Source of the DNA: Candidatus Nealsonbacteria bacterium CG11_big_fil_rev_8_21_14_0_20_37_68 | GTDB taxonomy: Bacteria > Patescibacteriota > Minisyncoccia > Minisyncoccales > GCA-002782225 | Assembly: GCA_002787295.1 (NCBI GenBank) | Contig: PCWJ01000024.1 | Span: 29,931 to 63,554 of the forward strand | DNA length: 33,624 nucleotides | Direction of reading: 5' to 3' | Shown here: in pieces, positions 1 to 33,452 of the stretch | Layout: the number at the start of each line of letters is the position of its first letter | How positions within the stretch are numbered: the stretch's first letter is position 1 | The notes under the pieces: generated by a model | Seen by the model: the letters and a program-made list of their open reading frames with translations, nothing else | Databases searched by the model: none | Told to the model about the DNA's origin: nothing | Program-made: the position numbers and the translations under genes

Positions 1-2054
1 TTCTTTGAGCATTTGATTTGTTTCCTTTTTGTTTCTACCAGTAAAGAACCGCATTTTGGACAGGTTTCATTAATGGGTTTATCCCATAAAGCAAAATCGC
101 ATTTTGGCCAATTGGAACAGCCATAAAATATTTTTCTCTTTTTAGTTCTTTTCTCCGTGATTTCTCCGCTTTTGCAGTTTGGACACTTAATGCCCAAAGT
201 ATTTTTTTCAAGGGACTCGGTGTATTTACACTTCGGGAATTTAGAACAGGCATAAAATTCTCCAAATTTCCCCAATCTGATTACCAAAGAAGCTTTGCAT
301 TTTGGACAGATTTTTTTAGTTGGTTTTTCGGTAAATTCTTTTTTAGAAACTTCCTCATATTTATGCTTCAGGTTTTCTTCGAAGGGGATATAAAATTCTT
401 GAATTATTGGCGTCCATTTTTTTGAACCTTTGGCAATTTCGTCAAGCGATTCCTCCATCTCGGCCGTAAATTTAATATCAACAATTTTTGGAAAGTGTTC
501 CACCAAAAGATCGTTAACTACGGTTCCAATTTCGGTTGGTTTAAATTTTCTATTTTCGTCTTTTTCAATATAATTTCTTTCCTGAACAGTAGATAATATC
601 GGAGCATAAGTTGAAGGTCTCCCAATTCCATTTTCCTCCAGAGCTTTAATTAGAGTGGCTTCTGAATAGCGAGGAGGGGGTTGAGTAAAATGTTGAGAAG
701 GGATTAATTTTAACAGCTCTAAAATTTCATCGTTTTCAAGCGGAGGCAGCTCGTTTTCTTCAAACTTGATTTGGTAAACCTTTAAAAAGCCATCAAATTT
801 CAAAATCTGTCCCGTTGCACGAAAGCCGTACCCCGCACCAGAACCTTCGGTTCGGTACGGGGCAGGATTTTTTGCCTCGATGTCAACAGTTGTTGAATCA
901 AAAATTGCCTGACCCATCTGGCACGCAATAAATCTTCGCCAAATTAAATCATAAAGTCGAAAACCTTGCTCATCTAATTTGGCTTTTAGTGTTTCTGGAG
1001 TTCCATCGGCAAAAGTCGGTCTTATTGCCTCATGGGCTTCTTGGACTCTACCTTTTGCCTTATATTTTCTCAAAAAGCCTGCCCAATAATTTTTGCCATA
1101 TTTTTCGGTAATAAATTTTTTAGCCGCAAATAAAGATAAATCAGAAAGATTTAGAGAATCTGTTCGGTGATACGTCGTTAGTCCTTTTTCATAAAGTTGT
1201 TGGGCAACCCCCATTGTAAATTTGGCTGGAAAATGAAATCTTTGCCAAGCTTCTTGTTGTAAAGTAGAAGTTGTAAAAGGCGGCAGGGGATTCCTTTTTA
1301 CCTCTTTTTTTTCAACGCTTTGAACTTTATATTCTGCTCCCTCCAGATCTTTTACAATTTCATCTGCCTCTTTTTTAGTTTTGATTCCCAGTTTCGGAAT
1401 AATTTTATCATCCTTTTTGACTAATATAGACTCAAACCAACGAGAAACGTTCTCGTTGGTTTTTTTGAGCTGGGCGATAATAGTCCAGTACTCTTGCGGT
1501 ATGAAATTTTGTATTTCTCGTTCGCGCTCAACAACTAACCTTACTGTCACCGATTGAACTCTTCCAGCAGAAAGACCCCTGGCTATTTTTTTCCATAAAA
1601 ATGGAGATAATTTATAGCCGACAATTCTATCCAAAATCCTTCTTGTTTGTTGAGCATCGACCAGATTCATATCAATTTTCCTTGGATTTTTAAGGGCTTG
1701 GTCAATTGCTGATTTGGTAATTTCATGAAAAACAATTCGCTGGTAAGGTTTTTCTCCGTCTAAATTCAAAATCTGAGCCAAATGCCAAGCAATGGCTTCG
1801 CCTTCCCGATCGGGATCAGTAGCCAAAATAGTGAGTTCGGCTTTTTGACTTTCCTTGGCTAAACTTTGAACAATCTTTTTAGCTTTTTCTGGGATAATAT
1901 ATTTTGGTTTAAAATTCTCTTCAATATCAATTCCAAGTTCATCTTCCGGTAAATCTCTAATGTGACCATAAGAAGAGAGAACCCGATATTTGGGACCCAG
2001 AAAATCCTGGAGAGTTCTTGATTTGGTTGGTGACTCAACGAGTATTAATTGCAT
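1..2054 (-). CDS. topA: DNA topoisomerase I (3' end runs off the window start)
   Basis: Absent from the ORF track because no stop codon lies inside the window. Hand translation of the minus strand from ATG 2054-2052 gives MQLILVESPTKSRTLQDFLGPKYRVLSSYGHIRDLPEDELGIDIE. It continues with TOPRIM DPDREGEAIAWH, the active-site Tyr region GLTTYHRTDS, then three C4 zinc ribbons (CPKCKAS..CSKFPKC, CPNCKSG..CSNWPKC, CPKCGS..). The start overlaps the dprA 3' end by 20 nt. Confidence 0.93.
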   Translation of the reverse strand, partial: MQLILVESPTKSRTLQDFLGPKYRVLSSYGHIRDLPEDELGIDIEENFKPKYIIPEKAKKIVQSLAKESQKAELTILATDPDREGEAIAWHLAQILNLDGEKPYQRIVFHEITKSAIDQALKNPRKIDMNLVDAQQTRRILDRIVGYKLSPFLWKKIARGLSAGRVQSVTVRLVVEREREIQNFIPQEYWTIIAQLKKTNENVSRWFESILVKKDDKIIPKLGIKTKKEADEIVKDLEGAEYKVQSVEKKEVKRNPLPPFTTSTLQQEAWQRFHFPAKFTMGVAQQLYEKGLTTYHRTDSLNLSDLSLFAAKKFITEKYGKNYWAGFLRKYKAKGRVQEAHEAIRPTFADGTPETLKAKLDEQGFRLYDLIWRRFIACQMGQAIFDSTTVDIEAKNPAPYRTEGSGAGYGFRATGQILKFDGFLKVYQIKFEENELPPLENDEILELLKLIPSQHFTQPPPRYSEATLIKALEENGIGRPSTYAPILSTVQERNYIEKDENRKFKPTEIGTVVNDLLVEHFPKIVDIKFTAEMEESLDEIAKGSKKWTPIIQEFYIPFEENLKHKYEEVSKKEFTEKPTKKICPKCKASLVIRLGKFGEFYACSKFPKCKYTESLEKNTLGIKCPNCKSGEITEKRTKKRKIFYGCSNWPKCDFALWDKPINETCPKCGSLLVETKRKQIKCSK
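831..862. repeat. GC-rich hairpin in-frame in topA
   Basis: CCCCGCACCAGAACC-ttc-GGTTCGGTACGGGG. The left end CCCGCACCAGA is identical to 14285-14295. Confidence 0.75.
1434..1462. repeat. 29-nt perfect palindrome in topA
   Basis: AAACCAACGAGAA-acg-TTCTCGTTGGTTT, with 13-bp arms. Confidence 0.85.
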
Positions 2055-2916
2055 AGATATTGTTTCCTAAGTTTCTTATCTTACCTTTTATTTCCAAAAT
2101 AACAAGGCAGCTTACAACTTTTTGTGGGGGTAACTTAGTTTTTTCAATAATTTTGTCGATGTATAATCCCTCCTCTTTTAATGAGTTCAAAATTAAATTT
2201 TCTTCGAGAGTCTCTCCGGTTACTTGCCTGTCGGAACTAGGTTCCGACAGGCCTAAATTTAGTTCTTTTAGAATATCATTAGCGTTTTCAGCCAACCATG
2301 CTCCTTGCTTTATTAAATAATGACAACCCTTAGAGTTTGAAGAATGGATTGGGCCGGGAACAGCAAAAACTTTCCTTCCTTGTTTTTTTGCCCACTCCGC
2401 GGTGATTAAAGCTCCTGACTTTTGCTTGGCTTCTATCACTAAAACCCCCAAAGAAAGACCGGAAATTATTCTATTTCTTTGGGGGAAAGTAAATTTGGAT
2501 CCGCAAGTTCCGGGTGGGTATTCAGAAATTAAACAGCCGCCAGATTCAATAATTTTTTCTGCTAATTTTAAATTGGTTTGAGGGTATATGCTTTTTTCGT
2601 CCAGGCCGGTTCCCAAGACGGCAATTGTTCTTCCTCCGCTTTCCAGGGCAGCCTGATGGGAAAATGTATCAATTCCCGGAGCAAGACCGGAGACAATTGT
2701 TAATCCAGCTTCAGCTAAATCACCGGCAATTTCCAGAGCCACCTGCTTTCCGTAGCTGGAGCACAATCTGGTTCCAACCACGGCAAAACAATTTTCCTCG
2801 GGCAAAATTTTTCCTTTAGCGTAAAGAATTTTTGGCGAGTTTTTTATTTTCTTTAAAATTTTTGGATAAGCTCCGTCTTTTATTGAAATTTCTTTGATTT
2901 CATTTAGCATTTCCAA
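2035..2916 (-). CDS. dprA: DNA processing protein DprA/Smf
   Basis: 293-aa ORF with the Rossmann-like DprA core (VVGTR..SYG, GLAPGIDTFSHQAAL, GGRTIAVLGTGLD, YPPGT, FPQRNRIISGLS, LVIEA..KSGALITA). The dprA-topA gene order is a common arrangement. Confidence 0.9.
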   Translation of the reverse strand: MEMLNEIKEISIKDGAYPKILKKIKNSPKILYAKGKILPEENCFAVVGTRLCSSYGKQVALEIAGDLAEAGLTIVSGLAPGIDTFSHQAALESGGRTIAVLGTGLDEKSIYPQTNLKLAEKIIESGGCLISEYPPGTCGSKFTFPQRNRIISGLSLGVLVIEAKQKSGALITAEWAKKQGRKVFAVPGPIHSSNSKGCHYLIKQGAWLAENANDILKELNLGLSEPSSDRQVTGETLEENLILNSLKEEGLYIDKIIEKTKLPPQKVVSCLVILEIKGKIRNLGNNIYAINTR

Positions 2917-3013
2917 ATCTTAAAACAATTTTTAAAATTCAACAAGTTTCGTATCGAAAATTGCGCCAAAAGTCCAACTTTCACTATGGGGCAAAATGAT
3001 TTAAAATATATTA

Positions 3014-5050
3014 ATGGCTGTGACCAAACAAGAAGTTAAACAGAGAATTGAGAAACTCAAAAAGGTGATTAACCATCATCGGTATTTATATCACGTATTG
3101 AATAAGTCCGAAATTTCTGATGCCGCCTTAGATTCTTTAAAACACGAACTTTATAAATTAGAACAAAAATTTCCAGAGTTTATTACTTCCGATTCTCCAA
3201 CTCAAAGAGTGGCTGGCAAACCCCTGGAAGGATTTGAAAAAGTAAAACATAAAGTTCCGATGCTTTCCATTGAGGATGTTTTCTCTGCTGAGGAACTTAA
3301 AGATTGGGAAGATTATTTAAAAAGATTAATTCCATCTACTGCCTTTGATTATTTTGCCGAACTAAAGATTGATGGATTTGCCATCACTTTAATTTATAAG
3401 AATGGCTTATTTACTACCGGAGCCACCAGGGGAAATGGTCTGGTGGGGGAGGATGTTACCCAAAATTTAAAAACAATCGAGAGCATCCCCCTGAAATTAG
3501 AGGTTCATGGTAAATTGCCAAATACAGAGATTGAGGAAAATCTTAAAAAATTAATCAAAAGAGGAAAAATTGAAATCAGGGGAGAGGTTTTTATGGGAAA
3601 AAAAGACTTTGGAAAGCTGAATGAAGAATTAAAAAAAAGAGGAGAAAAAATCTATGCTAACCCCAGGAATTTAGCCGCGGGTTCCATCCGACAATTAGAC
3701 CCAAAATTAGCTGCTTCTCGGCCCCTTAGATTTTTGGCTTACGATATAGTGACTGATTTTGGTCAAACCCAACACTCTCAAGAACATCAAATTTTGCCGG
3801 TCCTAGGTTTTATTACCGATCTGGGAAAAGAATGTAAAAATTTAAATGAGGTCGTAGATTATCGGAAAGAAATAGCCAAAAAAAGAGAAACTCTTCCTTT
3901 TCAAATTGATGGGGTGGTGGTGAACGTGGACAACAATTCGCTTTTTAAAAAATTGGGAGTGGTAGGGAAAAGCCCTCGGGGAATCAGGGCTTTTAAATTT
4001 TCTCCAAAACAAGCCACTACTAAAGTTTTGGATATAAAACTGCAGATAGGAAGAACGGGAGCTATAACACCGGTTGCTCACTTGGAGCCGGTTGAGGTTG
4101 GGGGGGTAACCATTACTCGAGCCACTTTGCACAATGAAGATGAAATAAAAAGATCGGGAGTAAAAATTGGAGATACGGTTATTGTTGAAAGGGCGGGCGA
4201 TGTGATTCCAGCCGTTGCTAAAGTTTTAAAAGAGCTCAGGACAGGAAAAGAAAAAGAATTTCATTTTCCCGAAAAATGTCCGGTTTGCGGCCGGAACTTA
4301 GTTAAACCATCTGGAGAAGCAGTTTGGCGATGCAAAAATCGAAACTGCGGAGCCATAAAAAGAGAATTTTTATACCATTTTGCTTCAAAAAAAGCTTTTG
4401 ATATCGAAGGATTGGGACCAAAGATTATTGATCAATTAATAGACGAGAATTTAATTTTTAGTACCCCTGATTTGTTTGAACTAAAAGAAGGAGACTTAAT
4501 TCCCTTGAAAAGGTTTGCCGAAAAATCAGCCAAAAATTTAATTGAATCTATTGAAATTGCAAAAAAAATCTCCTTGGCAAGGTTTATCTATGGCTTAGGG
4601 ATTCGTCACGTTGGCGAAGAGATAGCGATTGCAATATCTAATTATTTTGGTTCCCTTGATAAATTAAAAGAAGCTAACTTACAAGATCTTGAGAAAATTC
4701 CAGATATCGGCGAGGTGGTAGCTAAAAGCATATATTTTTGGTTTAGAGATAAGAAAAACTTAAAATTAATCAAAGATTTATTAAAAGCTGGAGTGAAAAT
4801 TATTTTTCCCCAAAAAATAAAAACTCAATTAAAAAGAAAAACTTTTGTTTTTACCGGAGCCTTAAAAACTATGGCTAGAGATGAGGCTGAAAACGAAGTG
4901 AGAGCATTTGGGGGGGCAGTTTCTTCTTCGGTTTCCAAAGAAACAGATTATGTAGTGGTGGGCGAATCCCCCGGTTCAAAAACAGAGAAAGCCAAAAAAT
5001 TAGGAGTAAAAATTATTTCAGAAAAAGAATTTTTAAAAATGATAAAATAA
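3014..5050 (+). CDS. ligA: NAD-dependent DNA ligase
   Basis: 678 aa. Adenylation motif ELKIDGFAI, OB domain, Cys4 zinc finger CPVCGRNL..WRCKNRNC, HhH region and C-terminal BRCT (FVFTGAL..). Confidence 0.95.
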   Translation: MAVTKQEVKQRIEKLKKVINHHRYLYHVLNKSEISDAALDSLKHELYKLEQKFPEFITSDSPTQRVAGKPLEGFEKVKHKVPMLSIEDVFSAEELKDWEDYLKRLIPSTAFDYFAELKIDGFAITLIYKNGLFTTGATRGNGLVGEDVTQNLKTIESIPLKLEVHGKLPNTEIEENLKKLIKRGKIEIRGEVFMGKKDFGKLNEELKKRGEKIYANPRNLAAGSIRQLDPKLAASRPLRFLAYDIVTDFGQTQHSQEHQILPVLGFITDLGKECKNLNEVVDYRKEIAKKRETLPFQIDGVVVNVDNNSLFKKLGVVGKSPRGIRAFKFSPKQATTKVLDIKLQIGRTGAITPVAHLEPVEVGGVTITRATLHNEDEIKRSGVKIGDTVIVERAGDVIPAVAKVLKELRTGKEKEFHFPEKCPVCGRNLVKPSGEAVWRCKNRNCGAIKREFLYHFASKKAFDIEGLGPKIIDQLIDENLIFSTPDLFELKEGDLIPLKRFAEKSAKNLIESIEIAKKISLARFIYGLGIRHVGEEIAIAISNYFGSLDKLKEANLQDLEKIPDIGEVVAKSIYFWFRDKKNLKLIKDLLKAGVKIIFPQKIKTQLKRKTFVFTGALKTMARDEAENEVRAFGGAVSSSVSKETDYVVVGESPGSKTEKAKKLGVKIISEKEFLKMIK

Positions 5051-5098: not shown

Positions 5099-7171
5099 TT
5101 AACTCCTTTTTAATTTCTCAATTGCTTCTGATAATATCTGACAGTATAAATTTAAGCCGACTTGATTTATATTTCCTGATTGCTCTTTGCCTAAAATGTT
5201 TCCGGCGCCGCGGATTTCTAAATCCTTTAAAGCAATTTTATAGCCAGAACCCAGTTCTTCAGCTTCTTTCAAAGCATCTAATCTCATTTCGGCTTTTTCT
5301 GAAAGGTGACTGCCGTTCACCTCCACACCATAACGAGGACTAACTTCGTTAATTTTATCGCCTTCGGCGATTTGTCCTCGTTTGGTGTGGGGGTAAAGAA
5401 AGTAAGCAAAGCTCTGAATGTGAGAACGGCCAATCCTGCCTCTGATTTGATAAGCTTCAGCTAAGCCTAATCTGGTTGAGTCAGCCACGATTAAAGTATT
5501 GACATTTGGCAAATCTAAACCATTTTCAATAATAGTAGTCGCTACTAAAACATCAATTTTTCTATTTTGAAAGTCTGCCATTACTTTTACCAATTCTTTT
5601 TCTTTCAGTCTTCCATGAGCAATCCCCAATTTTACCTCTGGTCTAAAACCCGACGTTAGTCCTTCTAAAAACTTTTTGGCTGTTTCGATTGTCTCTACTC
5701 GATTGTATAAAAAATAAACCTGTCCTCCTCGAGAAATTTCAGCCCAAATTGCTTTTTTAATAACGGTTTCCGACCAGGGCAAAATAAAGGTTTTGATGGC
5801 TAATCTCCCCAGTGGGGGAGTTTGAATTAGACTTATTTCTTTCAGAGAAGATAAGGCTAAATAAAGAGTTCTGGGAATGGGAGTGGCGGATAGAGACAAG
5901 ACATCCAAAGAGGTTCTTAATTTTTTTAATTTTTCTTTTTGGTTTACTCCAAATCTCTGTTCGTCATCAATTACCAAAAGTCCTAAGTTTTTAAATTCAA
6001 CGTCAGAAGATAAAAGCCGATGGGTTCCAATTACCATGTCTATTTGCCCCCGCTTTAAATTTTGAATTATCTTTTTTTGACCCGTTTTTGGCTGCAGACG
6101 ACACAATAACTCAATTCTTATGGGGAATTGCTTTAATCTTTTTTTAAAGTTGTGATAGTGTTGATTGGCTAAAATTGTTGTTGGGCAGATCATTGCTGTC
6201 TGATAACCTGAATTTACTTTTTTAACCATGGTTCTTAGGGCAATTTCAGTCTTTCCAAATCCAACATCGCCGCAAACAATCCTATCCATAGGCTCTAACT
6301 TTTTAAGATCTTGTTCAATTTCTTTCATTGTCTGGACCTGATCCGGAGTTTCTTCAAAGAGAAAAGTGCCGGCGAGTTTGGCATCTATTTCTGAATCGGG
6401 AAAGCAGGGAGGCCTTTGGGCAATTTCTCTTTTGGCGTAAATTTCTAAAAGCTCTTTTGCTAATTTTTCAGCCTCCTCTTTTATTTTTCTTTTAGTTTTT
6501 TGCCAGAAAGGACTGCTTAATCTTGAAATTTTAGGTTCGACAAACCCAATGTAACGTGATAGTTTTCTCTCTAAGCCAAATGGAACATATAATCTATCTC
6601 CTTGGGCATACGCGATCTGGTAGTAAGATAATGTCCGATCGGACATTTTTTGATTAAGGGGTTTTTCTTTTGTAAGGCCAATAAACTTTCCCACGCCGTG
6701 GTCTAGATGGACCAAATAATCTCCGGGTTTTAATCCTTTTAAGTCAGAAAATATTTTTTGAGATTTTAATCTCTTTTTTAAAATTTCTTTAACTGTCTTT
6801 TCGTCTTTGATTTCAATGGGCAATCTTTCAATATTTTCGATTAGGTTTCCGTAAAAATCAAAACGAATTGGATAATTTAAATTAATTGGGAAAACCTCAA
6901 TTATTCCTCCCCGGCGAGAAAATTCTCCGGGCTCTGAAACCCGAATTACTTTTTCATAACCCATTTCATCCAGTTTTCTTAAAAATTGAGAAAAATTACA
7001 GCTTTGATTTTTTTCTAAAAATATGGTGTTATCCTCCCAGAAAGTTTGGGTTTTTTGGGTTTGAAGAATTTTATTTAAATTTTTTTCAAACCAAAAATTA
7101 CTTTTTTCTAAAAAGTAGGGGGTAATACTGACAATCAGAAGTTTTGTGATGATCTGATCTGACATCTCCAT
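5099..7171 (-). CDS. mfd: Transcription-repair coupling factor, shortened architecture
   Basis: 690 aa. RNAP-interaction region GDYLVHLDHGVGKFIGL, SF2 motifs GDVGFGKTEIA and DDEQRFG, and the TRG-like region. Much shorter than the ~1150-aa canonical Mfd. Carries a palindromic insert at 5321-5393. Confidence 0.88.
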   Translation of the reverse strand: MEMSDQIITKLLIVSITPYFLEKSNFWFEKNLNKILQTQKTQTFWEDNTIFLEKNQSCNFSQFLRKLDEMGYEKVIRVSEPGEFSRRGGIIEVFPINLNYPIRFDFYGNLIENIERLPIEIKDEKTVKEILKKRLKSQKIFSDLKGLKPGDYLVHLDHGVGKFIGLTKEKPLNQKMSDRTLSYYQIAYAQGDRLYVPFGLERKLSRYIGFVEPKISRLSSPFWQKTKRKIKEEAEKLAKELLEIYAKREIAQRPPCFPDSEIDAKLAGTFLFEETPDQVQTMKEIEQDLKKLEPMDRIVCGDVGFGKTEIALRTMVKKVNSGYQTAMICPTTILANQHYHNFKKRLKQFPIRIELLCRLQPKTGQKKIIQNLKRGQIDMVIGTHRLLSSDVEFKNLGLLVIDDEQRFGVNQKEKLKKLRTSLDVLSLSATPIPRTLYLALSSLKEISLIQTPPLGRLAIKTFILPWSETVIKKAIWAEISRGGQVYFLYNRVETIETAKKFLEGLTSGFRPEVKLGIAHGRLKEKELVKVMADFQNRKIDVLVATTIIENGLDLPNVNTLIVADSTRLGLAEAYQIRGRIGRSHIQSFAYFLYPHTKRGQIAEGDKINEVSPRYGVEVNGSHLSEKAEMRLDALKEAEELGSGYKIALKDLEIRGAGNILGKEQSGNINQVGLNLYCQILSEAIEKLKRS
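5321..5393 (+). repeat. Family B element inside mfd
   Basis: CCACACCATAACGAGGAC..ATCGCC-ttc-GGCGAT..GTCCTCGTTTGGTGTGG. About 17-bp inverted termini with an inner hairpin. Confidence 0.85.
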
Positions 7172-11841: not shown

Positions 11842-11925
11842 TAAGAACCTGCCTCGCTCCGCCAGTCGGCGGAGCTCGGCAGAACCTTGATTCGCTAAGG
11901 TATAGACATATAATCTTGAATTATG
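11842..11925 (+). repeat. Family A module, copy 1 (ybeY-ftsA spacer)
   Basis: TAAGAACCTGCCTCGCTC..GGCAGAACCTTGATTCGCTAAGGTATAGACATATAATCTTGAATTATG. Contains the hairpin CTGCC-TC-GCTCCGCC-agtc-GGCGGAGC-TC-GGCAG and a sigma70-like promoter. Confidence 0.85.
11887..11914 (+). promoter_or_regulatory. sigma70-like promoter of ftsA-ftsZ
   Basis: TTGATT, 16-nt spacer, TATAAT. The -10 ends 8 nt before the ATG and there is no SD. Confidence 0.6.
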
Positions 11926-13188
11926 CCCAAAAGCCACATCGTTACTGGGTTAGATATTGGCACCAGTGCAATTAAAGCCCTGACTGTTTTAAAAAAGAAA
12001 GGAAGCCAAGACCTCGAAGTTTTAAGTAAAGTTTTAAAACCCAATTCCGGAATGAGAAGAGGAGTGATAGTTAAACCGGAAGAGGTTTCACGGAACATAG
12101 CTTCAGTTTTGGATCAAATTCGAACCGAATCCGGGCAAAAAATTGACGGGGTTTATGTAAACATTGGAGGGAGCCATATTTTTTTAACTTCCTCCCGGGG
12201 TTCAGTCGTGGTTTCAAGAGCCGATCAAAGCATTTCCCGAGAAGACATAGAAAGAGCGATTCAGGCTGCTAAAACTTTTTCTTTGCCCCCAAACAGAGAG
12301 ATTATTGATTTCTTTCCAAAACAATTCATCATCGATAAAGAACCCGGGATTAAAGAACCCTTAGGAATGCGGGGGGTGAGACTGGAAGTTGAAATTTTGG
12401 CCATGGGAGCTTTTTCTCCTTATTTTAAAAATTTAACTACGGCAGTATTAAGCGCCGGAACCCAGATTTTAGATATAATCTGTTCTTCAATTTCTTCAGC
12501 AAAAGCCTGTCTGACTCCTCAGCAAAAAGAATTAGGAGTAGTGCTTCTGGATATTGGAGCCGGAACCACGGATTTGGCAATATATGAAGAAGGAGCTTTA
12601 ATCCATCTGGCAGTAATTCCCATAGGTTCTGGACATATCACCAATGACATTGCCATTGGTATTAGGACAGATATGGCGACAGCCGAGAGAATAAAAAAGG
12701 AATTCGTTCACTATCTTAAGGGAAACATTTTAAAAACCAAAAAAAAGGAGAAAATTGGGTCTTCCTTAAATCCTTTAACTTTTTCTCCCAAACTTTTGCG
12801 AAAAATCATTGAAGCAAGGGTTTGTGAGATTTTTGATTTAGTCCAAAAAGAGATCAAAAAAGTTTCTTCGGTGTTATTGCCTGCCGGAATAGTAATTACC
12901 GGAGGAGGAGCAAAATTACCCAATATTGTAGAGCTAGCCAAAAAAGAATTAAAACTTCCCTGTCGAATCGGAACTCCAATCTTCCACCAAATTTTGGCAG
13001 GAAAAGAGGATTCCGGTTTTTCACCGGAACCGGCGGAGGAAGGGGAAGACCCCGTCTTTAGCACGGCTTGGGGTCTGGTTTTATCTGCAATTGAGCAAAT
13101 TGAGCAAGAGCCAGAAAAAGGTTTCCCCGATTTTAGGAAAAGGGTTATAAATAGAATAAAAAGAACGTTGGGGGTATTTATCCCCTAA
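11923..13188 (+). CDS. ftsA: Cell division protein FtsA
   Basis: 421 aa. Actin-fold motifs (GLDIGTSAIK, DIGAGTTD, ITGGGAKL) and a C-terminal amphipathic basic tail FRKRVINRIKRTLGVFIP. Confidence 0.92.
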   Translation: MPKSHIVTGLDIGTSAIKALTVLKKKGSQDLEVLSKVLKPNSGMRRGVIVKPEEVSRNIASVLDQIRTESGQKIDGVYVNIGGSHIFLTSSRGSVVVSRADQSISREDIERAIQAAKTFSLPPNREIIDFFPKQFIIDKEPGIKEPLGMRGVRLEVEILAMGAFSPYFKNLTTAVLSAGTQILDIICSSISSAKACLTPQQKELGVVLLDIGAGTTDLAIYEEGALIHLAVIPIGSGHITNDIAIGIRTDMATAERIKKEFVHYLKGNILKTKKKEKIGSSLNPLTFSPKLLRKIIEARVCEIFDLVQKEIKKVSSVLLPAGIVITGGGAKLPNIVELAKKELKLPCRIGTPIFHQILAGKEDSGFSPEPAEEGEDPVFSTAWGLVLSAIEQIEQEPEKGFPDFRKRVINRIKRTLGVFIP

Positions 13189-13231
13189 ACCTGCCTAAGT
13201 TTTTCTTTGCAAAATTTAGGTAGGTAAACAT

Positions 13232-14251: not shown

Positions 14252-14458
14252 TAAGAACCTGCCTCGCTCAGCTCCGGCAGAACTCCCGCACCAGAGCAAA
14301 GCCCAGCACTAGAGCAGAGCTCAGTGCTGGACAGTCCCGAAGTGAGCTTCGCTCTACTTCGGGGCACGGTGCGGGACTAATCCCGAACCGTGTCGCCGAA
14401 GGCGACTCTGGTTCGGGGCTTGATTCGCTAATGTATAAACATGTAATCTTGAATTAAG
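14252..14458 (+). repeat. Family A module, copy 2 (ftsZ-nrdD spacer), split by a nested insert
   Basis: Same 5' end (TAAGAACCTGCCTCGCTC..GGCAGAAC) and 3' end (CTTGATTCGCTAATGTATAAACATGTAATCTTGAATTAAG) as copy 1. About 135 nt of extra GC-rich hairpins lie between them. Confidence 0.85.
14284..14418 (+). repeat. Nested GC-rich hairpin cluster
   Basis: Outer stem TCCCGCACC/GGTGCGGGA (14284-14292 / 14369-14377) encloses hairpins CCAGCACT..AGTGCTGG and CCCGAAGT..ACTTCGGG. A third hairpin follows: CCCGAACC-GTGTCGCC-gaa-GGCGAC-tct-GGTTCGGG (14382-14417). Confidence 0.85.
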
Positions 14459-14535: not shown

Positions 14536-16662
14536 ATGACCGAAAACAAAATCAAAAAAATCAAAAAAAGAGATGGGAGAATTGTTGATTTCGACCAGAG
14601 CAAAATTACTAATGCTATTTTTAAAGCCATCACTGCTACCGGTCAGGGGAACGGAAAGAGGGCAAAAAAACTTTCCGATAAAGTAGTCCAGATTTTAAAC
14701 CGTCGCTTTAAAAAAGATGAAATTCCTCAGGTGGAACAAACTCAGGACATTGTTGAAGAAGTTTTAATTTTAGCGGGCCTGGTTGAAACTGCCAGGGCCT
14801 ATATTTTATACAGGGAACAAAGAAGAAAAATAAGAGAGGCAGTGAAGGTAGCCGAGGAAGCGGTGGACCGAATTGATCAATATTTAGAAAAATTAGATTG
14901 GGAGGTTCAAGAAAATGCCAATATGGCCTTTTCTTTGCAAGGATTAAATCATTACGGAGTTTCTTATATTGTAAAAAAATACTGGCTAAACAAAATTTAT
15001 CCAAAAGAAATCAGAGAAGCAAATGAATCCGGAGATTTTCATCTTCATAACCTGGACACCCTTGGCGTCTACTGCGCAGGGTGGGATTTATACGACCTTT
15101 TATTAAAAGGTTTTGGCGGAGTTCCTGGAAAAGTGGCCACTGTGCCAGCTAAACACCTGAGAAGCGCCTTAGGACAGGCAATTAATTTTATATACACAAT
15201 TCAAGGAGAGGTGGCAGGTGCGGTCGCTTTTTCAAATTTTGATACATTATTGGCTCCTTTTATCCGCTATGACAATCTGAATTATCAGCAGATAAAACAA
15301 GCACTTCAGGAGTTTATGTTTAATATGTCGGTGCCAACTCGGGTAGGCTTCCAAAATCCATTTTCGAATATTACTTTAGACTTAAGACCCTCGCCGACTT
15401 TTGCTAAACAGCCGGTGATTATTGGTGGTAAACCCCAAAAGGAAACGTATGAAGAATTTCAAGAAGAAATGAAAATATTTGATAAAGCCCTTTATGAAGT
15501 GATGCTGGAAGGTGACAAGAATCAACGCGTCTTTTCTTTTCCTATTCCTACTATTAATATTACTAAGGATTTCCCCTGGGATGAAAGTGCTTTTGATGGT
15601 ATTTTCGAAGCTTCGGCAAAATATGGAACCAATTATTTTGCCAATTACATTAATTCGGAAATGAAGCCCGAGGATGTTCGTTCAATGTGCTGCCGGCTCA
15701 GATTAAATCTTACAGAACTTTACAATCGAGGTGGGGGAGGATTATTTGGCTCGGGAGCTTTAACTGGTTCGGTGGGTGTGGTTACAATTGACCTTCCCCG
15801 CATTGGTTATCTAGCAAAAACTAAAAAAGAATTTTTTGAGAGATTAGGAAAAATGATGGATTTGGCAAAAGAGAGTTTAGAAATAAAAAGAAAAACAATC
15901 GAGAACTTTATTGAAAAAGGTTTGTATCCTTATTCCAGATTCTATTTATCAGGGGTAAAGAAAATGAGGGGGCAATATTATGCTAATCATTTTTCAACGA
16001 TTGGTTTGGTTGGATTGAATGAAGCCCTTTTGAATTTCATTGGAGAAAATATTGGTTCAAAAAGAGGGAGAAGATTTGCTTTGGAAGTTTTAGATTTCAT
16101 GAGAGAGAGATTGGTTAAATATCAAAAAGAAACCGGTAGCATCTATAATTTGGAACAAACTCCGGCAGAGAGTACAAGCTATCGCCTGGCTTTAAAAGAC
16201 AAGGAAAGATTTCCAGATATAATTACTGCCGGAACAAAAAAAGTGCCATATTACACAAATTCAAGTCAATTACCTGTCAACTACACCGATGATATTTTCG
16301 AAGCCTTAAAGCTTCAAGACGAATTAACCTGTAAATATACTGGAGGTAGTGTTTTCCATATATTTTTGGGCGAAAGAATCTCTGACATTCAAACGGTGAA
16401 AAAATTAATTAAGAAAATTTTTGAGAATTTCAAGCTGCCGTATATCACTTTAACTCCGACTTTCTCAATTTGTCCCAGTCATGGCTATCTAGAAGGAGAA
16501 CACTTTTTCTGTCCAAAATGCACAATTAAACAACCTTGCGAGGTTTATTCAAGGGTTGTCGGGTACATTCGATTAGTGTCTCAATGGAATAGCGGAAAAG
16601 TTCAAGAATTCCACGAAAGAAAAGAATTTAAAATTAGAAAAACAGAATTAGCTAAAACTTAA
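14536..16662 (+). CDS. nrdD: Anaerobic ribonucleoside-triphosphate reductase (class III)
   Basis: 708 aa. N-terminal ATP-cone (KRDGRIVDFDQSKI), C-terminal Zn ribbon (CPSHG..CPKC) and glycyl-radical motif SRVVGY. Confidence 0.93.
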   Translation: MTENKIKKIKKRDGRIVDFDQSKITNAIFKAITATGQGNGKRAKKLSDKVVQILNRRFKKDEIPQVEQTQDIVEEVLILAGLVETARAYILYREQRRKIREAVKVAEEAVDRIDQYLEKLDWEVQENANMAFSLQGLNHYGVSYIVKKYWLNKIYPKEIREANESGDFHLHNLDTLGVYCAGWDLYDLLLKGFGGVPGKVATVPAKHLRSALGQAINFIYTIQGEVAGAVAFSNFDTLLAPFIRYDNLNYQQIKQALQEFMFNMSVPTRVGFQNPFSNITLDLRPSPTFAKQPVIIGGKPQKETYEEFQEEMKIFDKALYEVMLEGDKNQRVFSFPIPTINITKDFPWDESAFDGIFEASAKYGTNYFANYINSEMKPEDVRSMCCRLRLNLTELYNRGGGGLFGSGALTGSVGVVTIDLPRIGYLAKTKKEFFERLGKMMDLAKESLEIKRKTIENFIEKGLYPYSRFYLSGVKKMRGQYYANHFSTIGLVGLNEALLNFIGENIGSKRGRRFALEVLDFMRERLVKYQKETGSIYNLEQTPAESTSYRLALKDKERFPDIITAGTKKVPYYTNSSQLPVNYTDDIFEALKLQDELTCKYTGGSVFHIFLGERISDIQTVKKLIKKIFENFKLPYITLTPTFSICPSHGYLEGEHFFCPKCTIKQPCEVYSRVVGYIRLVSQWNSGKVQEFHERKEFKIRKTELAKT

Positions 16663-17394
16663 ATGCGAATTGGCGGACTCCAAAAAGTAACTTTGATTGA
16701 TTTTCCGGGCAAATTAGCCTGTACTGTTTTTTTAATTGGATGTCCATTTCGATGCCCTTTTTGCTATAATAGAGAGCTTGTTTTACCGGAACTAATTGAA
16801 AAACAGCCAAGAATTAAAAAAGAAGATTTTTTTGATTTTTTAAAAGAGAAAAAAGGACTTTTAGAAGGGGTTTGTATTACTGGGGGGGAACCAACGGCAA
16901 ATCTTGATTTGCCAGAATTTTGCCAAAAAATAAAAGAACTCGGATTTTTGGTGAAATTGGATACAAATGCCTATGACCCTGAAATGATGAAAAAATTGAT
17001 TGATGAAAAATTAATCGATTATGTGGCAATGGATGTTAAGGCCCCAAAGGAAAAATATGGAAAATTAATCGGAATTGAAAACGAAGTTTTTGTAAAAAGG
17101 ATAATTGAAAATATTGAAAGAAGTGTTGAAATTTTAAAGGAAGGAAAAATTGACTATGAGTTCCGTACTACGATGGTTCCGACCCTTTTGGAAAAGAAAG
17201 ATATTTTGGAAATTGGAAGATGGCTTTTCTCTCTCTCCCCAGGGCAAAAGCTTCCAAAATATTATTTGCAAAATTTCAGGCCAGAAAAAACAATTGACCC
17301 AAAATTTGAGAAAATTAAACCATATCCAAATGAATATTTATTAGAAATCCAAAAAGCCCTTTCTCCATTTTTTGAGGTTTGCCAGATAAGGTAA
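16663..17394 (+). CDS. nrdG: Class III RNR activating protein (radical SAM)
   Basis: 243 aa. CPFRCPFCYN radical-SAM cluster motif. Abuts the nrdD stop codon directly. Confidence 0.9.
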   Translation: MRIGGLQKVTLIDFPGKLACTVFLIGCPFRCPFCYNRELVLPELIEKQPRIKKEDFFDFLKEKKGLLEGVCITGGEPTANLDLPEFCQKIKELGFLVKLDTNAYDPEMMKKLIDEKLIDYVAMDVKAPKEKYGKLIGIENEVFVKRIIENIERSVEILKEGKIDYEFRTTMVPTLLEKKDILEIGRWLFSLSPGQKLPKYYLQNFRPEKTIDPKFEKIKPYPNEYLLEIQKALSPFFEVCQIR

Positions 17395-17470
17395 CCCCTA
17401 ACCATAACGAGGACTGATTTTGTTAACTGGGGGCGCTAAAGGCGCCTTGTTTTCGTTTGGTGTGTGGGGG
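17395..17470 (+). repeat. Family B element, nrdG-comEC spacer
   Basis: Shares ACCATAACGAGGACT, GTTAA, TTGT, CGTTTGGTGTG and GGGGTAAA in the same order and orientation as 5321-5398. The inner hairpin is replaced by GGCGC-taaag-GCGCC. Confidence 0.85.
17432..17460 (+). terminator. Intrinsic terminator after nrdG (embedded in the family B element)
   Basis: GGCGC-taaag-GCGCC followed by TTGTTTTCGTTT. Confidence 0.55.
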
Positions 17471-17482
17471 TAAAATAGGGGA

Positions 17483-19078
17483 ATGACCAAATCGAAGATT
17501 TTCCTCTATTTTTGTCTTTCTTTTATTGGGGGAATATTTCTGAGTTCTACTATCTTTGTTCCTGCGCTGGGATTCTCGCTAGGTAGTAGAGTTTATCTCT
17601 TACTACCGGGTTTAATTTTGGGGATTTTGCTAATTTCGATACTTTGGCAATATAAAAAAATTGTTGTTATTGGATTTTGTATTCTATTTTTGGTTGCCGG
17701 AATTTACCGTCACCAACAAGCCGAATTAAAAATTATAAATAACGAATTAAAATCCCACAACGATACCGGCAAAGAGATTATTTTAACAGGGGTAATTTCA
17801 AAAGAAGCCGACATAAGGTCAAATAATATAAAACTAATAATAACACCTGAAGAAATTCAAAATGCCGCAAACCTTCAAAATGCCGAGAACCGTTCTCGGC
17901 ATTTTGAAGGTAGGGTTTTGGTTACAACTAATCGATATCCTGAATATCAATATGGGGATAAATTAAAAATTACCGGAGAATTAAAAGCTCCCATCGAATT
18001 CGAAGATTTTAATTATAAAGATTATTTAGCTAAAGATGGAATTTATTCGGTAATGTACTATCCCAAAATTAAGCTATTAGAAAGAGAAAAATCCATAGGT
18101 CCGACCTATGTAATTTACAGCCAAATTTTATCTTTTAAAAATAAGTTGATGGAAAGCATTTATCAAAATCTTTCTCCGCCCCAATCTTCAATTCTGGGAG
18201 CGGTAATTTTGGGAGATAAAAGAAAAATTTCTGATGAGTGGAAACAAAAACTAAACATTGTCGGGGTGAGACACATTACTGCCGTTTCCGGAATGCATGT
18301 AGCAATTTTAACTACTATTTTAATGACTCTGTTGCTTGGTCTTGGTTTTTGGCGGCAGCAGGCTTTTTATTTTTCAATAGTCTTTGTTGCTTTTTTTGTA
18401 ATTATGACCGGTCTTCAGCCTTCGGCAATAAGAGCCGGAATTATGGGAGGATTGTTTTTGCTGGCCCAATATTTGGGAAGGCAGAAATTTGCCACCAATG
18501 CTCTTTTGTTGGCGGCAGTGGTAATGTTGGCAATTAATCCCTTGCTTTTAAAATTAGATGTTGGTTTTCAGTTATCCTTTTTGGCAGTTCTGGGAATCAT
18601 TTATTTAATGCCTATTTTTCAATATTATTTTCGAAAGTGGTTATCACCAGAGTGGTTTCAAAAATGTTGGTGGCTAAGTTGGCTACCGATAAAATCTATC
18701 GGCGACATTTTGGCTATGACCCTATCCGCTCAAGTTTTCACCTTGCCGATTTTAATTTATAATTTTGGCTATATGTCTTTAGTGGCTCCGATAACCAACC
18801 TTTTAATAGTTCCGTTTTTGTCCTACATTATGGGATTGGGTTTTCTTTTTGGAATTTTTGGAATAATCTCCCAGTTTCTGGGTTGGGTTTTTTCCTGGCC
18901 AGCCTGGTTACTTTTAACCTACTTAACAAAAATAGTAGATTTCTTTTCTCAAATTCCTTTGGCTTTTATAACCATAGAAAATTTGCATTGGGCATGGTTA
19001 ATAATTGCCTATTTAATTTTGGGCTATTTTACTTGGCGAATATCGCAAAAGCAAAAATTAAAGTTTTTAAATTATTAA
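17483..19078 (+). CDS. comEC: ComEC/Rec2-family DNA uptake channel (no C-terminal metallo-beta-lactamase domain)
   Basis: 531 aa, polytopic. N-terminal OB-like region (GRVLVTT..YGDKLKITGELK) then the competence domain (GVRHITAVSGMHVAIL). Contains a 39-nt palindrome at 17872-17910. Confidence 0.85.
   Translation: MTKSKIFLYFCLSFIGGIFLSSTIFVPALGFSLGSRVYLLLPGLILGILLISILWQYKKIVVIGFCILFLVAGIYRHQQAELKIINNELKSHNDTGKEIILTGVISKEADIRSNNIKLIITPEEIQNAANLQNAENRSRHFEGRVLVTTNRYPEYQYGDKLKITGELKAPIEFEDFNYKDYLAKDGIYSVMYYPKIKLLEREKSIGPTYVIYSQILSFKNKLMESIYQNLSPPQSSILGAVILGDKRKISDEWKQKLNIVGVRHITAVSGMHVAILTTILMTLLLGLGFWRQQAFYFSIVFVAFFVIMTGLQPSAIRAGIMGGLFLLAQYLGRQKFATNALLLAAVVMLAINPLLLKLDVGFQLSFLAVLGIIYLMPIFQYYFRKWLSPEWFQKCWWLSWLPIKSIGDILAMTLSAQVFTLPILIYNFGYMSLVAPITNLLIVPFLSYIMGLGFLFGIFGIISQFLGWVFSWPAWLLLTYLTKIVDFFSQIPLAFITIENLHWAWLIIAYLILGYFTWRISQKQKLKFLNY
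17872..17910. repeat. 39-nt perfect palindrome in comEC
   Basis: CCTTCAAAATGCCGAGAAC-c-GTTCTCGGCATTTTGAAGG, with 19-bp arms. TTCAAAATGCCG is also present as a direct repeat at 17856-17867. Confidence 0.9.
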
Positions 19079-27467: not shown

Positions 27468-28955
27468 ATGTCAATATACGATTTGCCAAAATTTGACCCC
27501 GTTAGAAATTTTTTTAAAAAATTCAAAAAAGTAAAACTAACGGGAATTTCTAACGGGGTTGAATTACCCAAATTAAACCCTCCTAAGTTTTTTTTCAAAA
27601 AATTTGGGAGGGTAAAAGTCCCAAAACCCAGCACCAGAGCAGGGCTCGGTGCTGGACAGTCCCGAAGTGAGCTTAGCTCTAGTTCGGGGCTCGGTTCTGG
27701 ACCTTGGGGGAATAAAGCCGTTATTATTTTTTTGATAATTTTAATTTCTTTTATTTTTGGAGGCATAGGTGGAATCTTTACCGGCAGTTATTTTTATTCC
27801 CGGGTAGAAGATTACCTTAAAAAATTAAACATCCAGATTCCCCAGGTTGAAAAAGAAACAATAATCGAAAAAGAGTACGTTCCCGAGACCTCTCAAGAAG
27901 AAAAAACAATTAATGTGGTGAAAGAGGCATCCCCTTCGGTGGTAAGTATTATTATTACTAAAGACCTTCCAGTTGTTGAGCAATTCTACTATAACCCCCT
28001 TAAGGAATTTGAAGAATTTTTTGGGCCCCTTGGCCTTGAGTTTGAAGTTCCTCAGTATCAAGAAAAAGGAACCGAGAAAAAGGAAATTGGAGGAGGAACC
28101 GGTTTTATTATTTCTGAAGACGGAATGATTTTGACCAACCGCCATGTGGTCTTAGATAAAGAAGCAGATTACACTGTTTTAACCAACGAGGGTCAAAAAT
28201 ACCCGGCTAAAGTTTTAGCTCGAGACCCAATCAAAGATTTGGCTGTAATTAAGGTTGAAAGCGAAAAGAAATTTGAGCCCTTAAAATTGGGAGATTCCGA
28301 CAAACTTCAGCCGGGCCAGACCGTGATTGCGATTGGCAATGCTCTTGGAGAATTTCGAAATACGGTTTCTGCCGGCGTAGTTTCCGGGCTAAAGAGAACC
28401 GTTGCTGCTTCCGGCGGAGGCCAAACCGAAGTTTTAGAAAATGTAATTCAGACCGATGCCGCTATTAATCTAGGGAATTCCGGCGGTCCTTTGTTAAATT
28501 TACAAGGGGAGGTGATTGGAGTTAATGTAGCTGTGGCTCAGGTAGCGGAAAATATTGGTTTTGCTATTCCCATCAATGAAGCCAAAAAAGACATTGAGCA
28601 GGTTAAAACCTTGGGCAAAATTGTCTATCCCTTTTTGGGAATTTATTACATTGTGATTACCCCCGAACTTAAAGAAAAATTTAACTTGCCGGTTGATTAC
28701 GGAGCCTGGATTGGCAGAAATGAAAAAGGAGAATACACTGAAGAAGCAATTTTTTCCAATTCGGCCGCCGAGAAAATCGGTTTAAAAAGAGATGATATTA
28801 TTCTGGAGTTTGACGGCAAAAAAATTACTTCAGAAAATCCTTTAGCTAAAATTATTCTGGGATATAACCCGGGGGACAAAATTTCGTTAAAGGTTTTAAG
28901 AGACAACAAAGAGGAAATTTTTCCGGTTATTCTTGGCGAGAGAAGCGAAGATTAA
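27468..28955 (+). CDS. htrA: HtrA/DegP-type serine protease with PDZ domain
   Basis: 495 aa. Intact triad contexts (LTNRHVV, KDLAVIKV, GNSGGPL), a C-terminal PDZ domain and one TM helix. The N-terminal ~80 aa are encoded by repeats and palindromes. Confidence 0.88.
   Translation: MSIYDLPKFDPVRNFFKKFKKVKLTGISNGVELPKLNPPKFFFKKFGRVKVPKPSTRAGLGAGQSRSELSSSSGLGSGPWGNKAVIIFLIILISFIFGGIGGIFTGSYFYSRVEDYLKKLNIQIPQVEKETIIEKEYVPETSQEEKTINVVKEASPSVVSIIITKDLPVVEQFYYNPLKEFEEFFGPLGLEFEVPQYQEKGTEKKEIGGGTGFIISEDGMILTNRHVVLDKEADYTVLTNEGQKYPAKVLARDPIKDLAVIKVESEKKFEPLKLGDSDKLQPGQTVIAIGNALGEFRNTVSAGVVSGLKRTVAASGGGQTEVLENVIQTDAAINLGNSGGPLLNLQGEVIGVNVAVAQVAENIGFAIPINEAKKDIEQVKTLGKIVYPFLGIYYIVITPELKEKFNLPVDYGAWIGRNEKGEYTEEAIFSNSAAEKIGLKRDDIILEFDGKKITSENPLAKIILGYNPGDKISLKVLRDNKEEIFPVILGERSED
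27497..27558. repeat. 14-bp perfect inverted repeat in the htrA 5' coding region
   Basis: CCCCGTTAGAAATT (27497-27510) and AATTTCTAACGGGG (27545-27558), plus an extra CTAACGGG at 27537-27544. Confidence 0.85.
27625..27703 (+). repeat. Family A two-hairpin core, in-frame in htrA
   Basis: By hand alignment, 27627-27690 differs from 14302-14365 at about 5 of 64 positions. Confidence 0.85.
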
Positions 28956-32714: not shown

Positions 32715-33452
32715 ATGCCAATAAAACATCCACAATTTGTTAATGGAGAAATCTATCACATTATAGTTAGGGGAATTGCCGGTCAAAAAACTTTTTTAGA
32801 CGATAAAGATCGTCTGAGATATCTTTTTAATTTGTATAAATTTAATAATAAAAATATAGTTATTCGTAATCCCTCTTACCGGGAAGCCATCCCGGTAGTC
32901 TACCGGGATGGCTTCCCGGTGCTGTTGGAGACAGAAAGGGAAAAGCCAAGAGATTTATTAATTGAACTTTTAGCCGTTTGTTTAGTGCCCAATCATATTC
33001 ATTTATTAGTTCGTCAGGCTGACGACGGCGGTGTTTCTTTATTTTTCCAAAAAATGGGCGGTTATGCCAGTTATTTTAATAAAAAATACCAAAGATTTGG
33101 TTCTTTATTTCAGCGACCATTTAAAGCTATTCATATCAAAACTAATGACCAATTATTAATTGTCACTACCTATATTCATTTAAATTTAATTGATTTAATT
33201 GAGCCAAACTGGAAAATTAAGGGTATTTCCGATCCTCAAAAGATTATGGATTTTTTAGAAACTTATCCTTGGTCAAGCTATCCTTATTATTTGGGAAAAT
33301 CAAATCTTTCTTGGCTAATTAATTCTGATTTTCTAAATAAAATTTTAAAAAGGCCCGAGGATTTTCGGAATTTTGTTAAGGCTCGGATTTTTCAGAAAAC
33401 TGAACTAAAAAATTTTTTAAAGAAGACCAAAGAAATTGAGAAGTTTTTCTGA
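32715..33452 (+). CDS. REP-associated tyrosine transposase-like protein (HUH / Y1, IS200-like fold)
   Basis: 245 aa. N-terminal YHIIVRG, HUH motif in PNHIHLLV, and a Tyr ~57 aa downstream in TTYIHLN. No TnpB partner. Flanked and interrupted by related palindromes. Confidence 0.8.
   Translation: MPIKHPQFVNGEIYHIIVRGIAGQKTFLDDKDRLRYLFNLYKFNNKNIVIRNPSYREAIPVVYRDGFPVLLETEREKPRDLLIELLAVCLVPNHIHLLVRQADDGGVSLFFQKMGGYASYFNKKYQRFGSLFQRPFKAIHIKTNDQLLIVTTYIHLNLIDLIEPNWKIKGISDPQKIMDFLETYPWSSYPYYLGKSNLSWLINSDFLNKILKRPEDFRNFVKARIFQKTELKNFLKKTKEIEKFF
32878..32920. repeat. 43-nt palindrome inside the RAYT CDS
   Basis: ACCGGGAAGCCATCCCGGTA-gtc-TACCGGGATGGCTTCCCGGT, with 20-bp perfect arms. Each arm is itself a small hairpin. 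Confidence 0.9.

Follow-up and report, generated by a model that had tools for sequence, protein, structure and literature searches.

In this study, we analysed a 33,624-nt stretch of a Candidatus Nealsonbacteria genome (contig PCWJ01000024.1, hereafter the window) and found two copies of one palindromic element in it, one inside the mfd gene (5320–5393) and the other in the spacer between nrdG and comEC (17395–17470). The mfd copy very probably belongs to a family of non-autonomous transposable palindromes that resemble MITEs, the miniature inverted-repeat transposable elements, and are widespread in Parcubacteria, within the candidate phyla radiation (CPR). The closest named relatives of the window's proteins come from Candidatus Nealsonbacteria and Paceibacterales, and the window is therefore ascribed to a Parcubacteria genome. 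The family displays most of the defining properties of MITEs: a small size that leaves no room for a transposase gene, inverted repeats of about 20 nt at the two ends, a target-site duplication and multiple dispersed copies per genome; a related autonomous insertion sequence sharing the same termini was not found in the loci and metagenomes scanned. Since the same element occurs at no fewer than 90 further places in other Parcubacteria assemblies, the match between the two window copies goes far beyond chance.

Both copies share a common architecture. An outer stem of 20 bp with a one-base bulge, in which CCNCCACACCA, a bulged T and AACGAGGAC face GTCCTCGTTTGGTGTGGGGG, encloses two small hairpins. 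The first of these reads TAAC-TTC-GTTA or TGAT-TTT-GTTA and the second is GC-rich, with ATCGCC/GGCGAT in mfd versus GGCGC/GCGCC in the spacer. The mean column identity of the two aligned copies is 79%. A first-pass annotation, made from the letters alone, had recognised the pair by shared blocks that proved exact, with ACCATAACGAGGAC at 5327 and 17401 only and TCGTTTGGTGTG at 5378 and 17453. Both of its elements are real, while their spans had to be corrected to 74 nt plus the 4-nt flanks in mfd and to a degenerate 76 nt in the spacer. Its observation that the central hairpin is swapped and still a hairpin was borne out by compensatory variation across the whole family. The predicted RNA fold of the mfd copy reaches −43.3 kcal/mol on the plus strand (z −8.7) and −40.3 on the minus strand; the spacer copy yields −34.1 on the plus strand (z −3.9) and only −21.7 on the minus strand. 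A family covariance model (R1) built from 48 members, with both window copies in its training set, recovers them at the scores listed in Table 1; the next best match in the window reaches 23 bits, and no further full copy was found there by this model. Its remaining matches (2445–2485, 17870–17912, 32879–32919 and 830–863) are unrelated hairpins, and the one at 2445–2485, within an open reading frame (ORF; 2035–2916) that we take by eye to encode DprA, looks like a chance palindrome. Rfam 15 gave no match at its gathering thresholds and none at either copy even at E ≤ 1.

The comparison of the window Mfd with its 120 closest homologues (70–79% identity) revealed the contribution of the element to the protein. 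The linker reads FAYFLY-GSHLSEKAKMRLDAL, without insert, in 98 of these homologues, and FAYFLY-PHTKRGQIAEGDKINEVSPRYGVEVN-GSHLSEKAEMRLDAL in the window, with exactly 26 extra residues and an ORF left intact despite the insertion. The in-frame insert proposed earlier is therefore genuine, and its length is 26 codons (78 nt, 5315–5392) instead of about 24. Its antisense reading in mfd had been given correctly as HTKRGQIAEGDKINEVSPRYGVE, and GQIAEGDKINEVSPR is one of the peptides that its translation would yield. Repeat-free orthologues sharing the longer linker had been named as the observation that would contradict an insertion; the linker of the 98 homologues is short. At the nucleotide level, the empty site of two orthologues (L097 and L099) reads TTA TAC|GGC and the window CTT TAC, 78 nt, GGC. 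From these orthologues, an ancestral empty site GCCG^TAAAG was deduced, which predicts TAAA on both flanks of the element. An HMMER alignment to Escherichia coli Mfd (6X26/2EYQ) splits into query residues 135–597, matching Mfd 465–920, and residues 626–688, matching Mfd 925–987. The insert thus follows directly on helicase motif VI and is itself closely followed by the TRG helical hairpin. The cluster of proteins 100% identical to the window Mfd (P0001) has 10 member sequences.

This nine-codon linker has received other insertions. Short inserts of another kind occur in 21 of the 120 homologues, with hairpins in the DNA of three of them. One orthologue has a 39-nt insert, CCCACCAAAATTTTC-TGAC-GAAAAATTTAAGCGGG, at the nucleotide position that the window element occupies, and two hairpin inserts follow GAAAAAG, of 39 nt (CCCGCCTAAGTTTTGT-GAA-ACAAAATTTGGGCGGG) and 36 nt (CCCCGTTAGAAGTC-GA-AGACTTTCTAATGGGG). 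A 48-nt insert was also found in the linker of L100. The linker between motif VI and TRG is an insertion hotspot. Related lineages have acquired no fewer than five different hairpin inserts there, a natural experiment on loop tolerance beside the TRG motif.

For the spacer copy, the informative comparison is a relative (L005) in which nrdG and comEC are joined as nrdG-TAA-GATA-ATG-comEC. Because only 4 nt lie between the genes in this relative, the spacer copy represents an insertion that parted two abutting genes. The role of comEC leader formerly attributed to it is true in the trivial sense that the copy fills the junction and does not extend further, given the 4-nt junction of the relative. 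A role as nrdG terminator finds weak support, since a loose scan accepts no more than the inner GC hairpin with the GTTTTCGTTT that follows it, and that single site compares with 0.8 expected in shuffled sequences. On a related contig, another copy of the element (L080:1183–1256) sits on the comEC stop codon (TGA), mirroring the window copy on the nrdG stop.

The extent of the family was assessed by scanning public genomes and metagenomes with a strict two-arm pattern, then with a single-arm pattern, and finally by pairing the arms. The strict pattern identified 13 loci in 8 metagenome-assembled genomes (MAGs) of Parcubacteria, among them Nealsonbacteria, Portnoybacteria and Minisyncoccales as well as a bin that carries the label Saccharibacteria; RS_14_22 alone has 5 copies even under this exact pattern. 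The single-arm pattern gave 83 metagenome loci, and arm pairing led to 92 elements. Of these, 75 are distinct; 74 nt is by far the most frequent length, and most copies measure between 64 and 156 nt. Two high-GC loci, L033 and L096, matched with a single arm and no partner; they have the appearance of fragments or chance hits in an unrelated organism. Nested and tandem copies are present at L006, L013, L062, L020, L067 and L079. A third copy was found about 2.8 kb upstream of the window start on a near-identical contig (L065:2977–3051). As this contig is 99.9% identical to window positions 1–4192, the window's genome has at least three copies. The inner hairpin of the third copy, ATCGCGCC..GGCGAT, nearly equals the ATCGCC..GGCGAT of the mfd copy, whose closest relatives are this copy and its L048 counterpart (93–94% identity).

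The flanks of the copies show signs of transposition. Identical 4-nt flanks surround 39 of 74 copies, against a mean of 5.4 and a maximum of 13 when the flanks are paired at random, and no other repeat length fits. The duplicated tetranucleotides are diverse (TTGA, TAAA, TCAA, TTTA, TGAA, CTTG, CCGG and others), with a TNNA consensus. A filled site and its empty orthologue are available: L012 reads GAA T-TTGA-74 nt-TTGA-T AGA and L076 reads GAA TTT GAT AGA, with a single TTGA, the difference being exactly 26 codons. Target duplications together with nested and tandem copies are hallmarks of transposition, and we read the family accordingly as one that transposes. Outside genes, 7 of 42 copies directly hit the stop codon of a long ORF, including the window copy at nrdG and the third copy, as expected from a TNNA target that often contains a stop codon. 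The orientation of the element relative to that of asymmetric targets outside genes (9 versus 5) is not significant.

A further characteristic of the family is its presence within genes. Long open frames span 33 of the 75 distinct copies, at about 26 independent sites. In every one of the 33, the element length and the added 4 bp sum to a number divisible by three, and such frames contain none of the 17 copies of other lengths (Fisher p = 1e-5). This test is partly circular, and out-of-frame copies with open frames abutting on both sides were therefore inspected as well; the four cases all sit between genes, on a stop codon contained in the flank. Within genes, the frame is preserved by each variant length (68, 71, 77 and 86 nt). 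Hosts confirmed with Pfam include the repair proteins UvrA (two copies), UvrB, UvrC, RecO and a RecJ-like DHH protein, along with LeuRS, GatB, PGK, FtsZ, trigger factor, a Clp-type ATPase, PCMT, a FakA-like protein, an amino-acid-kinase-family (PyrH-like) protein with two copies and a radical-SAM enzyme. In UvrB and the Clp-type ATPase, the insertion is shared by orthologues whose 120-aa flanks are 64–78% identical, which argues for a long retention of the copies. DNA-repair genes, namely uvrA with its two copies, uvrB, uvrC, mfd, recO and a recJ-like gene, account for about 6 of the roughly 26 independent in-gene sites (L001, L044/L069/L093, L062, L019, L008 and the window mfd).

The reading frame used by these copies is far from random. 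Three of the six combinations of orientation and phase are free of stops in the consensus. Across 44 copies they stay open in 37, 40 and 27 cases, respectively, yet the copies within genes adopt them 19, 2 and 0 times (p = 2e-4 for the first two frames). The favoured frame encodes a hydrophilic peptide rich in glycine and proline, PHTKRGQ.AEG.KINEVSPRYGVGV, with a grand average of hydropathy of −1.06. We read the bias as a selection for loop-compatible peptides; an insertion bias may be an alternative. A word-index search with a 54-aa tandem of the peptide retrieved no candidates. An HMMER search with the 30-aa segment against 1.84 billion representatives produced 7 weak matches from a query too short to be informative; among those 7, P0122 is the sole near-full-length match to the peptide (26 residues, 77% identity).

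The fold of the element is conserved beyond its sequence. In an alignment of 48 copies, 94.9% of the cells pair, and 97.6% of those in the outer stem, against 40–55% in slid controls. The outer stem is conserved in sequence. Changes on both sides of a pair occur at each of the eight pairs of helices 2 and 3, which are the small hairpin and the outer GC helix, and at one innermost GC pair out of two. Double-change cells number 81, compared with 25.7 ± 4.8 in shuffled alignments, none of 500 shuffles reaching this value. The one-base bulge is almost always present; its base varies, and so does its arm (left in 35 copies, right in 11). An inversion of the flip/flop type was considered for the two bulge and hairpin arrangements and rejected: the two forms also differ in sequence and constitute two subfamilies of 35 and 11 copies. 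The bulge presumably keeps the added length at 78 bp, as a perfect palindrome would add 77 bp. The suggestion that folding matters on one strand finds little support. On the mRNA strand of 23 in-gene copies, 24 G-U stand against 15 A-C mismatches, a non-significant excess that lends no support to a constraint at the RNA level. Recognition of a DNA hairpin or templated correction of one arm by the other could explain the covariation equally well.

The most probable scenario is the following. Terminal inverted repeats of about 20 bp (CCCCCACACCA(N)AACGAGGAC and GTCCTCGTTTGGTGTGGGGG) form a single stem with one bulge and two hairpins inside. Insertion takes place at TNNA targets with a 4-bp duplication, which the flanks show, and the cuts, staggered by 4 bp, would be the work of an enzyme supplied in trans, presumably a transposase. 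As the element measures 74 bp and the duplication 4 bp, each event adds 78 bp, or 26 codons. Copies landing in phase in tolerant protein loops would leave the gene unbroken, to be kept and probably translated; out-of-frame copies are seen only outside genes. In the window, one copy landed between helicase motif VI and the TRG helical hairpin of Mfd, adding PHTKRGQIAEGDKINEVSPRYGVEVN, and an older, decaying one on the stop codon of nrdG, pushing nrdG and comEC about 80 nt apart.

Several observations weigh against this transposable-element interpretation. The flanks of the mfd copy are not identical (TTCA/TAAA), although the ancestral site predicts TAAA on both sides, and the same pair recurs in at least five independent insertions, which a simple model of duplication followed by mutation does not explain. 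Such recurrent non-identical flanks hint that a simple cut-and-duplicate picture is incomplete. The autonomous parent is another difficulty: in about 0.65 Mb of collected loci, no pair of CCCCCACACC termini was found 0.5–4 kb apart, a scan of viral contigs for the parent element gave 0 matches, and all exact arm matches of the metagenome scan belong to short elements. The compensatory changes indicate that something maintains the fold; selection may act on the structure of the DNA or RNA, or the palindrome arms may undergo templated correction against each other. The translation of the inserts is a prediction from intact reading frames. Finally, an AlphaFold2 model of the window Mfd (mean predicted local distance difference test score of 59, below 50 for residues 565–687) was too poor to place the insert and was left unused.

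In a rival reading, the same mobile hairpin would be moved as a folded single strand by an HUH/Y1 enzyme (IS200/IS605- or RAYT-like), or by a site-specific recombinase with a 4-nt crossover, one tetranucleotide travelling with the element and the other coming from the target. This alternative, which we consider unlikely, accounts for an extrahelical base conserved within a long stem, with variable identity and on either arm (left in 35 copies, right in 11). It also accommodates the compensatory changes that maintain the hairpins and the recurrence of non-identical flank pairs (TTCA..TAAA, CTTG..TGAA, CTCG..TAAA), which surround other hairpin families as well; the 36-nt hairpin insert in the mfd orthologue L099 brings a TTTA that is missing from the empty site. 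However, a Y1 enzyme makes no duplication and uses one fixed target tetranucleotide, and here 39 of 74 copies have identical flanks of many sequences. The L012/L076 pair of filled and empty sites also fits a duplication, and neither a Y1 nor a RAYT gene turned up, although no search was aimed at them. A role as functional structured RNA (a cis-regulatory hairpin, terminator or small RNA) under selection, the position in mfd being incidental, appears very unlikely. Both copies fold strongly with covarying inner-helix pairs, and the spacer copy combines a terminator-like hairpin and T tract with mismatches that are G-U on the transcribed strand only (5 G-T, 0 A-C, in a single degenerate copy). 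Against such a role stand the absence of any Rfam family match, the occurrence of copies in both orientations, in at least 26 different gene sites and in spacers, the lack of a significant G-U bias on the mRNA strand (24 versus 15) and a terminator scan at background level (1 versus 0.8 expected), and target duplications with nested or tandem copies typify transposition.

Two further proposals concern the fate of the insert in the gene, and we give hardly any credence to either. CPR bacteria carry excised insertions in their rRNA genes, and the hairpin might similarly be an intervening sequence removed from the mRNA, for instance by cutting at the base of the long stem and rejoining, so that the protein would be unchanged. 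The long stem does juxtapose the ends and the duplicated tetranucleotides, and removing 78 nt restores the original message. Excision, however, requires neither a multiple of three nor a frame free of stops, and 33 of 33 in-gene copies have both. Variants of 68, 71, 77 and 86 nt keep the frame, no out-of-frame copy interrupts a gene, and in-gene copies favour one hydrophilic frame (19 versus 2 and 0). The insert might conversely be a conserved protein module selected for Mfd function, its DNA likeness to the spacer being secondary, and the peptide PHTKRGQ..SPRYGVGV indeed recurs in many proteins. The same DNA is nonetheless read in other frames (PHTITRT.., PPHHNEDK.., PPHQTRT..) and is present in non-coding spacers, its hosts are unrelated enzymes with unrelated insert positions, and 98 of 120 Mfd orthologues have no insert at all.

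The closest known analogue of the Parcubacteria element is the Rickettsia palindromic element (RPE), with which we claim an analogy and no membership. RPEs, described by Ogata et al. in 2000 and considered here as summarised in PMC10969869 and PMC2229807, are palindromic MITE-like repeats fused in frame into many housekeeping genes (PMC10969869; Delihas 2007, PMC2229807). Both are short palindromes forming a long stem-loop, found in spacers and in frame in many unrelated housekeeping genes, whose products gain a conserved peptide; genes hold roughly half of the copies, and the bacterial hosts have small genomes. They differ in host (Parcubacteria of the CPR versus Alphaproteobacteria) and, judging from published descriptions, show no apparent sequence relation. 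The Parcubacteria element is also shorter (74 bp versus 105–150 bp), its interior consists of two covarying mini-hairpins, and it has a clear 4-bp target duplication, an attribute for which the table of Delihas lists RPEs with a question mark (PMC2229807).

Other known repeats share part of these characteristics. Like the bacterial MITEs Correia/NEMIS, ERIC, RUP and Nezha, the element is small, devoid of transposase and bounded by terminal inverted repeats and target-site duplications, with many copies and nested or tandem insertions. Most described bacterial MITEs duplicate TA and have an identifiable parent, unlike the Parcubacteria element with its 4-bp TNNA duplication and no parent found, and the share of copies within genes (33/75) is far above the usual. 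REP/REPIN sequences associated with RAYT and palindromes derived from IS200/IS605 are likewise hairpin repeats with an asymmetric bulge and candidates for recognition as a folded single strand. These elements are known from extragenic positions, are not known to produce a target duplication and use a fixed tetranucleotide, whereas duplications of variable sequence are the rule in the Parcubacteria element and copies lie in genes. Fusion to ORFs in frame is also documented for the 107-bp Correia and 127-bp ERIC elements (PMC2229807). Finally, long inverted repeats embedded in and translated with protein-coding genes are described in Nematomorpha (PMC6649704); they are longer, up to 284 bp, and lie in mitochondrial genes.

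Full-text literature searches for such elements in CPR, Patescibacteria and Parcubacteria returned nothing relevant. The Parcubacteria element is apparently a new family of a known kind of element, in a phylum that seems to be without earlier description of it and with unusually clear target-site duplications. The settling of selfish palindromes in frame within essential genes has been regarded as peculiar to Rickettsia (PMC10969869). An independent and well-populated example in the CPR shows that it recurs in small genomes poor in spacer DNA, and the clear 4-bp duplications give a handle on the insertion mechanism. Annotation and phylogenomics of CPR bacteria are also concerned: repeats of 26 codons in UvrABC, Mfd, LeuRS, GatB, FtsZ and other proteins can pass for features specific to one lineage and disrupt alignments, and assembly errors may result from them.

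Table 1. Features of the window discussed in the text (positions are those of the window).
Feature	Position	Strand	Details
Palindromic element, mfd copy	5320–5393	+	74 nt; from sequence, fold, family model R1 (98.4 bits) and family alignment A2
Left arm of mfd copy	5320–5340	+	bulged T5331
Small hairpin of mfd copy	5341–5351	+	TAAC-TTC-GTTA
GC hairpin of mfd copy	5357–5371	+	ATCGCC-TTC-GGCGAT
Right arm of mfd copy	5374–5393	+	
Left 4-nt flank of mfd copy	5316–5319	.	TTCA; imperfect partner of TAAA, the expected target-site duplication
Right 4-nt flank of mfd copy	5394–5397	.	TAAA; target-derived; complement within mfd codons CTT TAC (Leu-Tyr)
26 inserted codons in mfd	5315–5392	-	PHTKRGQIAEGDKINEVSPRYGVEVN; from codon alignment of filled and empty orthologues
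mfd	5099–7171	-	short CPR form, 690 aa; Pfam UvrB_inter, CarD_TRCF_RID, DEAD, Helicase_C
Sister copy, degenerate	17395–17470	+	76 nt; starts right after nrdG stop TAA (17392–17394); 56.3 bits
Inner GC hairpin of spacer copy	17430–17448	+	followed by T-rich mutated arm GTTTTCGTTT; terminator-like by simple scan only
Right flank of spacer copy	17471–17474		TAAA; 8 nt before comEC ATG (17483)
NrdD ORF	14536–16662		Pfam
nrdG, radical-SAM activase	16663–17394	+	Pfam; stop codon within left flank of spacer copy
comEC	17483–19078	+	Pfam; immediately 3' of spacer copy
HtrA-like protease ORF	27468–28955		Trypsin_2 domain starts only at residue 210
Stacked element 1	27497–27558		CCCCGTTAGAA..CTAACGGGG; flanks TTGA/TTGA
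Stacked element 2	27578–27612		CCCTCCTAAG..GGGAGGG; flanks TAAA/TAAA
Stacked element 3	27622–27702		

The hairpin families of the Mfd linker are found elsewhere in the window (13186–13228, 27497–27558 and 27574–27616). Among 37 such hairpins in the collected loci, 10 have identical 4-nt flanks where 1.2 are expected, which points to a wider superfamily sharing one insertion machinery. As a tentative extension that we put forward with more doubt than confidence, Parcubacteria/CPR genomes may host a superfamily of codon-compatible hairpin transposons, moved by an enzyme that possibly recognises hairpins. It would so far comprise the CCCCCACACC type, the CCCCGTTAGA type, the CCCGCCTAAR type and minimal hairpins of 26–28 nt, all with C-rich and G-rich termini and 4-nt TNNA duplications. 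Selection for persistence within genes may account for the length of the main element (74 + 4 = 78, through the conserved bulge) and for its hydrophilic open frame, in genomes that, judging from the gene spacing of the window, seem to have little spacer DNA. Should such a superfamily exist, it would be a major source of lineage-specific loops in CPR proteins, with hotspots such as the Mfd linker.

The smaller hairpins were observed in several settings. Minimal hairpins of 26–28 nt, made of the termini only (CCCCCACACC-loop-GGTGTGGGGG), stand alone with 4-nt duplications at L010:4602–4627, L066:5777–5804 and L024:354–380, and replace the GC hairpin in some full-length copies (nested in L006, L013 and L062). 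A 35-nt hairpin has two copies in the window (13186–13228 and 27574–27616), with TAAA on both sides and one copy between ftsA and ftsZ; in other lineages, its family has also entered the Mfd linker without breaking the frame (VYPPKFCETKFGR peptide, L098).

Between 27450 and 27710, a glycosyltransferase gene is separated from the body of an HtrA-like protease by a stack of three palindromic elements, each of a different kind. None of them closes the frame of the protease ORF, so the annotated N-terminus may consist of repeats, or the true start may lie downstream. The third belongs to a GC-rich repeat of 81 nt present at 14297–14377 and 27622–27702 (89% identical), one copy being upstream of nrdD. 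It forms the hairpins CCAGCACT..AGTGCTGG and CCCGAAGT..ACTTCGGG within an outer stem, had no match in Rfam and may represent another element family with the same three-way layout. Lastly, a 38-nt repeat at 11886–11923 and 14419–14456 (92% identical), upstream of ftsA and nrdD, combines TTGATT, 17 nt and TATAAT or TGTAAT and looks like a shared promoter.

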